Shown piece after piece: positions 4,464 through 13,284 of a stretch of 64,000 nt of DNA. Position 1 is the stretch's first letter; every line of letters begins with the position of its first letter. The notes beneath the pieces were generated by a model. It ran no database searches. It had not been told where the DNA came from and worked only from the letters and a program-made list of their open reading frames with translations. A program made the translations under genes and the position numbers. This DNA is from an uncultured Acidobacteriota bacterium (GTDB lineage Bacteria > Acidobacteriota > UBA6911): contig CAWIVH010000018.1 of NCBI GenBank assembly GCA_963839475.1, positions 9,012 through 73,011 of the forward strand. Direction: 5' to 3'.

Positions 4464-5040
4464 TTGAGGCCACCATGTTTCGGCCATCTCAGTTCATCAT
4501 GTGGGCATTTTGTGTCTCGCGTCAGGATTGGCACCGGTTGGATTGGAGGCCGGCTTTTGCGATAGACCGGATATGGGCGAACCCAGTGTCCGGTTCAGTT
4601 TAATGCAGGATATGCGCCTGAATCGGTCGCGGGCTTGTCATCAAATTCACGCCCGATGCATGGATGGAAAAGTATCAAGGACTCCGCTGGACTTGAGACT
4701 GTGAGGCGGATGGCGAGTTTCCGGCAGATCCGATTTCGACACTGGACACATCGCGCCTCCACATAGATAGCCGGCGCGCCTTGATTGGAGCTCGAAGGTC
4801 AGCCACAGCCGTCAATTACATTATGTAAGCTATTACGATCATCTCAGTTGGCATCCAGGCAGCCTGTAATGCCGGATTTAAAGGGAGTTCGGCTCGGATT
4901 GAGCTGGATCTAGAGATGGTGCATGGGTTTGCCGGCGATGGAAACAATAGACTGATGCAAGCCTTTGTGCTGGAGGATATTGCGGCTCGCTTGGGTTAAC
5001 TCCAACCGCTTTCTGCCGTCCCTGGATCGGAATTGTCTGC

Positions 5041-5193
5041 CCCATTTTCGTGGACCCATTTTCGTGGACACCCATCAAAGGCAACCCTGGGAACCTGGAC
5101 ACCCATCAAAGGCAAACCTGGAAATCTGGACACCCATCAAAGGCACAAAAAAGTGGGTGTCCACAACCTCAGGCAAAAAAGTGGGTGTCCACA
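5041..5193. repeat. Intergenic array of short direct and inverted repeats. It has 2 x ccattttcgtggac, 3 x CTGGACACCCATCAAAGGCA (spaced 30-31 bp), then 2 x AAAAAAGTGGGTGTCCACA in inverse orientation. It is REP/REPIN-like.
   Basis: Exact copies are visible at 5042/5056, at 5064/5095/5125 and at 5147/5175. GGACACCC and GGGTGTCC are reverse complements, so the cluster can fold into long imperfect hairpins. Confidence 0.7.
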
Positions 5194-11444: not shown

Positions 11445-11565
11445 GAAGAAGCATTGTACATCCTGGCATCGCTATTGGAGATCCGCCAAAGCTGGAAACA
11501 GGATGAGCCGGATGGCGAAATCCATGCTTGGGTCATGCAACATGCGGCGATCGGCCTCCTGGCTA

Positions 11566-13075
11566 ACTCCTGGATTCCTGGACACCCATCACTCGGAATC
11601 CTGGTGGGAATCCTGGACATCCATTTAGGAATGGACAATTTTGGCCTTATTTGTCTTGGCTCAATCGATGAATTCTCCATTAGATAAGTTGAATGGAGGG
11701 CAATATGGGTATGCCGCGCAGCAGATACGTGCAGGAAGGTGAGGAAGGTGTGTATCATTGCTATAGCCGTTGCGTTCGACGGGCATCCCTCTGTGGATTC
11801 GACCCGCTCACACGCAGGGATTTCTCCCATCGTAAGGCATGGTTGGTCGACAGATTAAGGTATCTTGCTGGAATCTTCGCGATCGATGTATGTGCATTCG
11901 CTGCATTGGTTACGCATTATCACACCATTCTCCGAACCCGCCCCGATATCGTTGAAGGTTGGTCGGATCGGGAAATAGCAGCCCGCTGGCTGATGCTTTT
12001 CCCCCGTCATCGCAGCCGAAGGAGTGTCATGGTACCGCCTCTGGAGGAGCAGATCCGTGCACTGGCAGATTGCCCGAATCGAATCGCCCAGCTGCGCAAG
12101 CGACTGTGTAGCCTGAGCTGGTTCATGGGCCAGCTGAACGAATTCATCGCGCGCAAGGCCAACAAAGAGGATGGGGTCAAGGGCCGATTCTGGGAAGGTC
12201 GCTTCAAATGCCAGGCTCTGCTCGATGAAGCCGCCATTGCGGCATGCATGGTGTACGTGGACCTCAATCCGATCCGGGCCGGACTGGCGCAAACCCCTGA
12301 GCAAAGTGACTTTACCAGCATTCAGGAGCGGATCCATGCCTGGCAGAATGAAACGATGACAGATACCTCGACGCCGACACAGACGATGGCTATAAATCCG
12401 CGATCCGACTCTGCTGACAATGGCGCGCAATCGCCGGACAGCAGCGCCGTGGACTCTTACCCTTTTTCCAAGCCGCCTCATGAAGTCACTCATTCCGTGG
12501 ATCGCACAACCAGCTCTGCGGATTGGCTTTGCCCCATTCAATCAGATTCCCATCGACGTGGAATCCTGAAGATGACTGCGACCGAATATTTTAACTTGGT
12601 GGACCTGTCGGGTCGTGTGATGCGATCGGATAAGTGGGGAGCAATCAATATCAACCTTGCGCCGATTCTGCTGCGAATAGGCGCCAAACCCGCAGCGTGG
12701 CTCGAAACTGTGTCACACTTTGGATCCAGATTCTGTCTCGCCGCCGGACGGCTTTCCAATCTGCGCAAATATGCTGATCGGATCGGCAGGAGGTGGCTGA
12801 AAGGCATTGCGGCAACTAGTTCAGCCTTCGAATTGTCACCGCCGCAAATGGCCTGACCCCACTGGCGCCCGGCAATTCCACAATCGCGATCTGCGACTAT
12901 CTTCTATCCAAGTCCCCTGCTGCTAGTATGCTTAGATTTCATCAACGCCGGTGACCGTCCTGCAGTCTTGGTTCCTGCCGTTTTTCTCTCCCAAAGGCCA
13001 GCGAATAGGGGAACCTAACGATTTCGGATGCCCAGGATCCTCATGATTCCCATGAATGTCGGGTGTCCAGCCAAT
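11566..13075. mobile_element. IS200/IS605-like or REP-associated (RAYT-like) HUH transposase unit. One gene is bracketed by inverted copies of a GGAATCCTGGACACCC-type motif.
   Basis: Upstream at 11570-11625, plus orientation: ggattcctggacacccatca and ggaatcctggacatccat. Downstream at 13031-13070, reverse orientation: cccaggatcc ... gggtgtccag. The same GGACACCC core occurs in the array at 5041-5193. Confidence 0.5.
11705..12856 (+). CDS. HUH/Y1 transposase, IS200-like / REP-associated tyrosine transposase (RAYT)-like, with a ~160-aa C-terminal extension
   Basis: HUH motif HYHTIL. Candidate catalytic Tyr in MVYVDLNPIRAGL (the Y..NP[IV][RK]AGL helix of COG1943-type proteins). Also FWEGRF and an N-terminal YHCYSRCV strand. 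RBS ggaggg upstream. Confidence 0.65.
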   Translation: MGMPRSRYVQEGEEGVYHCYSRCVRRASLCGFDPLTRRDFSHRKAWLVDRLRYLAGIFAIDVCAFAALVTHYHTILRTRPDIVEGWSDREIAARWLMLFPRHRSRRSVMVPPLEEQIRALADCPNRIAQLRKRLCSLSWFMGQLNEFIARKANKEDGVKGRFWEGRFKCQALLDEAAIAACMVYVDLNPIRAGLAQTPEQSDFTSIQERIHAWQNETMTDTSTPTQTMAINPRSDSADNGAQSPDSSAVDSYPFSKPPHEVTHSVDRTTSSADWLCPIQSDSHRRGILKMTATEYFNLVDLSGRVMRSDKWGAININLAPILLRIGAKPAAWLETVSHFGSRFCLAAGRLSNLRKYADRIGRRWLKGIAATSSAFELSPPQMA

Positions 13076-13131
13076 CCATCCAATACCCACCCAATAAATC
13101 CAAGGAACTGGTTAACGATTCTGATCACTTG

Positions 13132-13192
13132 CCGGAGGACAATGAAAGGGACAAGATCCTGCCGTAGGACAACGAGAGGGACAAGATACTCT
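13132..13192. repeat. 2 x ~30-bp direct repeat (aggacaaYgaRagggacaagatMct)
   Basis: Two adjacent near-identical 30-mers lie just downstream of the right REP-like end. Confidence 0.6.
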
Positions 13193-13284
13193 GGACTGCC
13201 ATGTGGCTCGGCTCAAAATCCATGCGCCGGAATTTATTCATCCTCCAAGTCAAAAAGCTACCCTTGTGTTATAAGCTCTTGCCC

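Follow-up and report, generated by a model that had tools for sequence, protein, structure and literature searches.

A 64-kb stretch of DNA from an uncultured member of the Acidobacteriota (hereafter the window, meaning the entire stretch that was analysed) carries at 11571-13077 a gene for a Y1 enzyme of the HUH superfamily, bracketed by inverted copies of a short non-palindromic core. This interval is probably one copy of a unit that is bounded by terminal inverted repeats (TIRs) and encodes a Y1 HUH enzyme of TnpA-Y1 subclass 2.3, a group described without repetitive extragenic palindromes (REPs) or associated repeats (Quentin et al., 2018, PMC6006769). As far as the literature found extends, it is new that subclass 2.3 has a cognate repeat, that this repeat is shared across phyla and that it recurs in dispersed arrays; a literature search linking GGACACCCA to subclass 2.3 genes returned no paper, and one made with the 10-mer returned unrelated primer sequences only. 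The window holds eight copies of the core at two loci together with one copy of the gene, and the features concerned are listed below by coordinates, strand, nature and basis (ORF, open reading frame).

5065-5191, no strand assigned: gene-less cluster of cores between two convergent ORFs; motif search
11571-11589, plus strand: outer left end, the exact core TGGACACCCAT (11579-11589) preceded by about 8 nt (TGGATTCC); sequence, with the boundary predicted
11607-11624, plus strand: inner left copy, GGAATCC-TGGACATCCAT, one core mismatch (core 11614-11624); sequence
11656-11704, plus strand: putative promoter-like block, TTGGCT ... TTAGATA, with ribosome-binding site GGAGG; alignment
11705-12856, plus strand: gene for the Y1 HUH enzyme (383 amino acids); ORF, homologue starts, conserved motifs and model
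12857-13059, plus strand: subterminal non-coding stretch of about 205 nt; stop codon to right-end core
13026-13040, minus strand: possible degenerate inverted copy GGATGCCCAGGATCC (GGATCCTGGGCATCC on the minus strand), three core mismatches; weak assignment
13060-13077, minus strand: right end, inverted core CGGGTGTCCA (one mismatch) plus about 8 nt; sequence, with the boundary predicted

The core around the gene, beside its relatives and in arrays

The outer left copy, GGATTCCTGGACACCCAT at 11572-11589, consists of GGATTCC followed by TGGACACCCAT, and the inner left copy (GGAATCCTGGACATCCAT in full) lies 91 nt upstream of the start codon. On the other side of the gene, the inverse copy CGGGTGTCCAG occupies 13060-13070, about 204 nt past the stop codon, and is accompanied by the weaker one at 13026-13040. 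A first-pass annotation of this DNA had reported repeats upstream of the gene, their reverse complement downstream and an inverted-end layout about 1.5 kb across; inverted copies of one motif do bracket the gene in this way, and the spelling GGAATCC for the copy at 11572-11589 had to be corrected. The 18-mer, with up to three mismatches, has four matches in the window against 0.05 expected, and the 10-mer CTGGACACCC, with up to one mismatch, has 16 against 4.0 expected, neither count being reached by any of 100 shuffles; as these counts exceed chance, the repeats noted earlier are confirmed. The limits of the unit, near 11571 and near 13077, are predicted by analogy, because homology between copies in Microbulbifer thermotolerans (locus L113) and Shewanella starts and ends just outside the core (5-9 nt on the left and 7-8 nt on the right).

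The extent of the core itself follows from 582 exact copies of the 10-mer in 945 kb of fetched DNA, where about two would be expected by chance. Over these copies the 10-mer and a pyrimidine at position +1 are conserved, forming an 11-nt, non-palindromic core, and the flanks show a mild bias, A-rich on the 5' side and T-rich on the 3' side. Family-wide, the core reads R-G-A-C-A-Y-C-C-A-Y, over a conserved length of 9-11 nt, and each end of the window unit carries GGACACCCA plus a pyrimidine, in gene sense on the left and inverted on the right; the variants on record are GGACACCCA, GGACATCCA, GGCCATCCA, AGACACCCA and GCCACCCA.

The placement of the core relative to the gene is conserved among relatives. 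In each of five loci encoding homologues of 67-68% identity, TGGACACCCA was found upstream in the sense of the gene, the copy in L004 having one mismatch (TGGACATCCA). The innermost of these copies lies at -77 to -79 and the inverted ones downstream begin at about +200 to +370; gene-less clusters are also present in two of the loci. Among relatives in general the innermost upstream copy is at -76 to -130 and always in gene sense. With 25 complete gene loci selected by the motif, 27 of 28 upstream copies were in gene sense and 40 of 41 downstream copies were inverted. Since the loci from the genome scan had been chosen by motif, the orientation test was redone on 80 metagenome loci picked by two protein patterns alone, counting sites with up to two mismatches at -260 to -40 upstream and at +100 to +480 downstream. 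An upstream gene-sense site was present in 48 of 59 of these loci (4 of 59 for the control orientation) and a downstream inverted site in 24 of 48 (control, 8 of 48); when one mismatch at most was allowed, all 67 upstream sites were in gene sense and 29 of 32 downstream sites were inverted. A de novo search for inverted repeats in loci without the canonical word recovered AGGACATCCA, GGCCATCCAT, AGACACCCAC and GCCACCCA at corresponding distances, and the site is therefore strongly conserved yet has clade-specific variants.

The genome scan covered 185,579 species-representative genomes (596 Gb) for a pattern of two direct copies 15-45 nt apart and yielded at least 119 tiles, with about 34 chance matches expected over the whole 596-Gb collection. 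About a third of the tiles encode a homologue (34-76% identity) and roughly two thirds of these motif-selected tiles hold arrays without a gene, at least four such tiles coming from each of two metagenome-assembled genomes (MAGs) of Acidobacteriota. Many of the tiles belong to Gammaproteobacteria (among them Shewanella, Marinobacter, Microbulbifer, Psychromonas, Alteromonas, Ferrimonas, Aeromonas, Lysobacterales and Steroidobacteraceae), and the remainder to Acidobacteriota, Phycisphaerae, Isosphaeraceae, Verrucomicrobiales, a Salibacteraceae MAG and others. The core itself, or close variants of the RGACAYCCA type, holds corresponding positions and orientations beside relatives from several phyla. 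The motif is confined neither to this locus nor, as would have counted against the first-pass annotation, to the window: the cluster at 5065-5191 carries further copies, and so do more than 100 other genome tiles.

Discrete units were recognized in multi-copy hosts, where the copies are 88-97% identical. In M. thermotolerans (L113), three full 1.3-kb copies lie within 8 kb and share 88-90% DNA identity; their homology begins 5-8 nt before the left core (..ATTCA, then TGGACACCCA) and stops 7-8 nt after the right core, at the end of TGGGTGTCCAATTTTGTT. One full copy is followed, 3 nt past its right end, by the start of a truncated one, and the right-end unit occurs as a tandem duplicate. Counted over the whole 8-kb tile, there are no fewer than three full copies, besides one with an internal deletion and two that are partial, with unrelated sequence of 0.3-1.2 kb between them, a layout that suggests local hopping or a preference for insertion near existing ends. 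The unit of Shewanella algae occupies 3914/3918 to 5203, some 1.29 kb, and its left end reads gaacaataTGGACACCCA. Upstream of the full copy in L217 (2957-3918), three left-end fragments that lack their 3' parts and measure 285, about 90 and 587 bp are stacked head-to-tail, each fragment stopping exactly at the start of the next left end.

The surroundings of the Shewanella copies differ between strains. In S. algae (L215-L222, P0206), an identical protein has strain-dependent upstream neighbours that begin exactly at the left-end boundary. The neighbour is either a second copy of the element or one of the following: a gene with a TIR_2 domain, DUF4365, Mrr_cat together with HATPase and a response regulator, or OLD-TOPRIM/AAA_15. 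On the downstream side are small co-oriented ORFs resembling a cassette array (Imm11, SocA_Panacea and DUF1993). At the Shewanella loci L125-L134 (e.g., L126, 5194-7176), strains remain homologous up to about 8 nt past a degenerate right-end core, TGGGTGGCTA, and beyond that point are strain-specific HEPN_AbiU2, SieB, DUF2806 or esterase genes, or nothing. This cargo has ends similar to integron attC cores (GTTAAGCC), and some strains have a duplicate of the right-end unit.

The 163 clusters of the core comprise 133 that run in one direction (2-19 copies), 19 convergent ones and a single divergent one; these counts are biased by the direct-doublet scan pattern, which inflates the one-directional class. 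Spacing within the arrays is irregular (18-60 nt). Copies are depleted in long ORFs by a crude six-frame measure, 55% lying inside ORFs that cover 85% of the DNA, and in an annotated plasmid region of Saccharobesus eight of ten motif-like sites are intergenic; the gene-less arrays appear to mark intergenic sites prone to rearrangement. Long one-directional arrays of 9-12 copies are found in L079 (193-489 and 5184-5537) and L042 (331-766), where the spacers are made of short sub-repeats such as CCGCCTCG and AGCGGTCT and the units, of 33-48 nt, are nearly identical; these arrays look like products of tandem duplication or slippage. The plasmid region (L223; Saccharobesus litoralis, NZ_CP026605.1, 16990-23290) has a variant core, AGACACCCAT. 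Its transposase gene is without a left-end copy directly upstream, the nearest (18225) lying beyond a gene for a hypothetical protein of 420 amino acids that is maybe cargo inside the unit, and a gene-less '++ -' cluster is located between toxin-antitoxin genes, with a group II intron 3 kb away. Breakage of short metagenome contigs at repeats was considered and rejected, contig ends not being near cores.

The gene-less cluster of the window consists of plus-strand copies at 5065, 5096 and 5127 (unit TGGACACCCATCAAAGGCA, 31-nt spacing) followed by minus-strand copies at 5153 and 5181, an arrangement (+++ --) that matches the layout of the gene-bearing unit minus its interior. As single-stranded DNA, the plus and minus copies can pair (-23.5 kcal/mol, z = -1.7), modestly better than shuffled sequences. 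A shortened copy, GTGGACCCATTTTC, which is the core minus 'AC', directly precedes the cluster at 5040-5064.

The encoded enzyme and its surroundings

The ORF of the first-pass annotation is real, with a length of 383 rather than 384 amino acids, and its ATG at 11705 is preceded by GGAGG and agrees with the MGLPRS/MALPRS starts of homologues. Both motifs claimed for it, HUH and Y..NPIRAGL, are present and intact, the former as H71-Y72-H73 (11915-11923, within THYH) and the latter with Y184 as YVDLNPIRAGL (from 12254 on). Over an alignment of 128 diverse representatives (A2), residues H71, H73, W163, Y184, D186, L187, N188 and R191 are at least 90% conserved, H73 being invariant; P189 reaches the same level in an alignment of 41 sequences (A1). 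The motifs FWEGRF and FTSIQ, the latter the TS tail, are also present. Residues 1-210 form the HUH/tyrosine core, including a helical insertion of about 55 amino acids (residues 79-135, approximately), and in the model helices 80-133 sit between the HUH strand and the W motif. A disordered linker of about 55 amino acids (residues 222-272), specific to the clade of the window protein, accounts for its length of 383 amino acids as opposed to about 325 in subclass 2.3, and is followed by a conserved, all-helical C-terminal domain (residues 285-375) with no recognisable relative.

Sequence profiles capture this protein poorly. No Pfam family matched it at E ≤ 1, Y1_Tnp (PF01797) is weakly matched by 68 of the 128 family representatives, and the NCBIfam equivalog REP_Tyr_transpos (NF047646) aligns with residues 131-204 only, at 31.5 bits and below its cut-off of 80. 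Searches of PDB sequences with the window protein and with the 128-sequence profile returned nothing meaningful. An AlphaFold model built from the 128 diverse sequences reached a predicted local distance difference test score (pLDDT) of 88.7 and a predicted template modelling (TM) score of 0.86; a model built from the 41-sequence alignment (pLDDT 43.7) was discarded. When the retained model was compared with the PDB using Foldseek, the best match was Escherichia coli TnpA-REP with its REP hairpin (4ER8; E = 2e-4, TM score 0.70 on the target), followed by IS200-family transposases of Sulfolobus and the TnpA proteins of ISDra2, IS200 and IS608. Given the outcome of the PDB sequence searches, the protein is linked to 4ER8 by the fold search alone. 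The top 30 matches are all Y1 transposases (4ER8, 2EC2, 2XM3, 2F4F, 2A6M and related chains among them), which disposes of the concern that the protein might align to a relaxase or Rep. Together with the weak profile matches, the fold agrees with the earlier description of an IS200/RAYT-like transposase (RAYT, REP-associated tyrosine transposase); judged from its modelled fold, the protein belongs with the Y1 HUH enzymes of the RAYT/IS200 superfamily and is neither a Rep nor a relaxase.

By its sequence, the window protein has the tyrosine motif of class 2 TnpA-Y1 enzymes, Y---NP, and by its motifs and its homology to members from Shewanella and other Alteromonadales it fits subclass 2.3. More than 7,900 word-sharing proteins were returned by a homologue search, the best 120 of which share 65-71% identity over the full length and are spread across very many metagenomes; the closest named relative is from a Terriglobia MAG (69% identity). 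An exhaustive search of representatives at 50% identity gave 1,257 clusters at E ≤ 1e-30 with the window protein.

Upstream of the gene, the position and partly the sequence of the putative promoter-like block are conserved in Acidobacterial relatives, where it takes the form TTGGCA...TAGTAAT and is likewise accompanied by a ribosome-binding site; a scan of the locus for consensus sigma-70 promoters called none. A local 7-bp inverted repeat, GGATTCC ... GGAATCC (11568-11604), has the outer left copy of the core in its loop, and the region 11560-11640 folds as single-stranded DNA with z = -3.0, a local feature with no equivalent pairing around copies elsewhere. The 3' non-coding stretch has a family-conserved length (about +173 to +260) and a sequence moderately conserved in close relatives, and may represent a subterminal cis-acting sequence. 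A structured RNA in this stretch was rejected, as the consensus fold amounts to only -2.7 kcal/mol and no Rfam family matched at E ≤ 1. Just past the stop codon (12860-12880; columns 15-24 of alignment A3), close relatives share GCGCCCAGCAG, which RNAalifold pairs with the right-end core some 200 nt away; most of the pairs are G-U, covariation is slight, and the pairing may be due to chance.

The neighbouring genes, named in the first-pass annotation as those of a GH10 xylanase and an RG-acetylesterase, encode a GH10 enzyme (PF00331, 1.2e-44) and a GDSL esterase with a YxiM-type galactose-binding domain. Two 30-bp direct repeats, which had also been noted, are present at 13130-13189 (not 13132-13192) and are 87% identical (TGCCGGAGGACAATGAAAGGGACAAGATCC and TGCCGTAGGACAACGAGAGGGACAAGATAC). 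Their place is beyond the predicted right end, a short way before the esterase gene, and they are found nowhere else in the window. Each contains two GGACAA words, with only five to six of ten positions matching the core, and no evidence ties them to the unit.

Proposed mode of action and competing explanations

Both mobility in the genome of the window and the chemistry of cutting are what we infer for the unit. The enzyme would read the core base-specifically, the additional helical insertion and the C-terminal domain being the parts that probably make the contacts. Base-specific reading is proposed because the core stays near-invariant though protein identity drops to about 35%, which counts against a purely structural mode of recognition. 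One strand would be nicked and rejoined about 8 nt outside the core via a 5'-phosphotyrosine link, as characterised Y1 enzymes do. The inverted cores may pair in single-stranded DNA, an 11-bp stem joining the ends in the manner of IS608/IS200/IS605 or of REPINs (REP doublets forming hairpins) and bringing both cleavage sites together on one strand; alternatively, each end may be bound as duplex DNA. Nested insertion beside or inside resident copies, coupled with loss of inner copies and tandem duplication of ends, would then generate the arrangement '+++ gene ---', and the same processes could leave gene-less '++ --' clusters such as that at 5065-5191.

Several observations weigh against a mobile unit with inverted ends. 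There is no direct sign of movement in the window, which has one copy of the gene and no target duplication, and the inner left copy and the right copy of the core are each mismatched. About 11 of the 59 protein-selected loci lack a recognisable upstream core, and the one-directional arrays of near-identical units, as in L042, resemble plain tandem duplication, not transposition. The loci of the genome scan were selected by motif, the unbiased sets being confined to the protein-selected loci and L001-L005. The core is not a hairpin, unlike the sites of structurally characterised Y1 enzymes, all of which, to our knowledge, recognise hairpins. Finally, close relatives maintain 65-71% full-length identity across very many metagenomes, and an identical protein of Shewanella (L125-L134, P0141) occupies one chromosomal site in at least ten genomes; on these two points a retained, domesticated gene fits as well as a transposon does.

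The main rival reading, though the less likely of the two, is that the gene has lost its transposon character in this lineage and that the enzyme has been kept for acting on or maintaining the arrays of its binding word. The purpose served would be one of the host, for instance chromosome structure, the processing of replication forks or local recombination, and the inverted copies around the gene would be relics of a mobile past. The single gene copy of the window is in keeping with such domestication, as are the conservation of relatives over their full length, C-terminal domain included, in thousands of metagenome proteins, and the degenerate ends at the fixed Shewanella site; RAYTs, moreover, are generally held to be domesticated (PMC5581495, PMC6006769). 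The gene is also rare on plasmids, and carriage by plasmids or phages was rejected on finding it in 14 of 72,556 plasmid records only, mostly chromids. Domestication is less easily reconciled with the multiple, moderately diverged and sharply bounded copies in Microbulbifer and S. algae, with the mean of 3.9 copies per genome reported for subclass 2.3 (PMC6006769), or with a patchy distribution among phyla combined with an unchanged end core, for which horizontal spread of the whole unit is a fitting explanation; nor do conserved neighbouring genes indicate a host function.

The first-pass annotation had labelled the locus REP/REPIN-like, and a classical system of this kind would comprise palindromic REPs in hundreds of inverted doublets mobilised in trans by a single-copy RAYT. 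TnpA-REP is indeed the closest structure, some homologues have been named RayT by the Joint Genome Institute, the gene is flanked by inverted copies, and gene-less convergent clusters (5065-5191 in the window and 3303-3443 in L005) can pair plus with minus copies in single-stranded DNA. The label is nevertheless very unlikely to apply. A palindromic hairpin REP was rejected, for the repeat is an 11-nt non-palindromic word whose flanks show only background complementarity in the 582 copies, which largely refutes the palindrome criterion. Hairpin-forming ends, which the first-pass annotation had advised looking for, are lacking, the right end not folding (z = 0) and the hairpin at the left copy being the local feature noted above, and no GTAG or CGTC tag was found. 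Doublets of the REPIN type are likewise at odds with the 133 one-directional clusters of 163, even if the search pattern is biased that way, and both the subthreshold NCBIfam score and the REP-less description of the subclass point in the same direction.

Still less can be said for the two remaining proposals. If the upstream copies were simply an operator, bound by the protein or another factor to regulate its own promoter, the other copies would be coincidental. The fixed distance of the innermost upstream copy, about 20 nt before the conserved promoter-like block, would suit this function, but it is made highly improbable by the inverted copies that most loci have at a conserved distance past the stop codon, by arrays with as many as 19 copies remote from the gene in any of its copies, and by inter-copy homology that ends at the cores. 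That the protein serves a plasmid or integrative element as its Rep or relaxase, the repeats being iterons or an origin, is scarcely credible: HUH chemistry is shared and direct arrays of a short word are superficially iteron-like, but the sole structural match of Rep type, the origin-binding domain of adeno-associated virus 2, appears at rank 39 (E = 0.35, probability 0.10), the class 2 Y1 motifs are present, the gene is almost absent from plasmids and the flanking genes are ordinary chromosomal ones.

A broader proposal, which is unlikely, concerns the family rather than the window: subclass 2.3 enzymes and their GGACACCCA ends may constitute a cross-phylum, site-specific DNA-joining system and not a simple selfish transposon, in which other DNA would be gained and lost at the ends, these serving repeatedly as junctions. 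The hints come from Shewanella only, where at two independent loci inter-strain homology stops within about 8 nt of the element end, where the cargo beyond is strain-specific and largely of defence type (HEPN-AbiU2, SieB, a TIR domain, OLD-TOPRIM and Mrr), and where ends are stacked with truncated copies abutting exactly. If this were true, the family would be a recombination platform for variable islands, somewhat integron-like and based on HUH chemistry.

The preferred reading, that of a TIR-bounded unit with its own enzyme, bears on a very large family that includes genes of Shewanella oneidensis MR-1 and that databases label merely as "transposase". As the systematic study of the group reported no repeat, a DNA substrate has been lacking until now, and a core of 9-11 nt at fixed places, from Acidobacteriota to Gammaproteobacteria, Planctomycetota and Bacteroidota, provides a concrete one for binding and cleavage assays. 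The association of a Y1 enzyme with a non-hairpin word broadens the REP/RAYT picture, and the core offers a simple marker for annotating both units and gene-less arrays.

Relation to known systems

The TnpA proteins of the IS200/IS605 family (IS608, ISDra2 and IS200) share the HUH/Y1 fold with the window protein and presumably the same single-strand nick-and-join chemistry. They are distinguished by a Y---Q motif, a length of about 150 amino acids, asymmetric subterminal hairpins rather than inverted repeats, nearly identical copies and, often, an accompanying tnpB. The window protein, with Y---NP and 383 amino acids, and its family, with hairpin-less ends and copies 88-97% identical, do not belong to this group (subclass 1.1).

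E. coli TnpA-REP (RayT/YafM, 4ER8) provides the best match to the catalytic core and has the class 2 Y---NP motif; as in REPtrons, inverted copies of a repeat bracket the gene and the repeat is also dispersed in the genome. However, 4ER8 has 165 amino acids, is without the insertion or the C-terminal domain and recognises an imperfect hairpin tagged with GTAG. REPs also vary between species, whereas the core described here is common to several phyla. By strict RAYT/REPtron standards, inverted cognate copies surround the gene but an extragenic palindrome is absent. Such systems also combine more than 100 repeats per genome with a single-copy gene; the 64 kb analysed hold eight cores at two loci and one gene.

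Subclass 2.3 is characterised by NHYH, WE and YVDLNP motifs, a TS tail, a 55-amino acid beta3:alphaC insertion and a distal domain, by a median length of 325 amino acids and by a distribution summarised as Chromatiales and Alteromonadales (Quentin et al., 2018, PMC6006769). The window protein resembles its members in having xHYH, WE, YVDLNP and the TS motif, an insertion of about 55 amino acids and a C-terminal domain, and its gammaproteobacterial relatives of 325 amino acids (Shewanella, Marinobacter, Microbulbifer and other Alteromonadales) are multi-copy. It differs in reading THYH instead of NHYH, in its length of 383 amino acids, in its origin from Acidobacteriota, which are absent from that summary, and in the conserved, non-hairpin inverted-repeat core and dispersed arrays found here.

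The subclass roots within subclass 2.1, which has been equated with the TIRYT/TIRtron elements, while published TIRYTs have been placed in subclasses 2.1, 2.2 and 2.5, not 2.3 (PMC6006769). TIRtrons are tyrosine-transposase genes bounded by TIRs sharing GGGGWSAS (Di Nocera et al., 2013, PMC3733652). Compared by eye with that motif as given there, the core (TGGGTGTCC/GGACACCCA) matches at six of eight positions at best, and many members of 2.1 carry a DnaA-C or helix-turn-helix-type tail for which Pfam gives no support in the window protein. In common with the TIRYT/TIRtron elements, on the other hand, a RAYT-like gene lies between non-GTAG TIRs at similar distances from the gene, the TIRs share a short G-rich motif, and they also occur solo, as dimers or in clusters. 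A gene bounded by non-GTAG inverted ends, with ends that are also clustered alone, is what was found in the window, and a TIRtron-type unit with a conserved non-palindromic end core describes it better than a REPtron or a REP/REPIN system.

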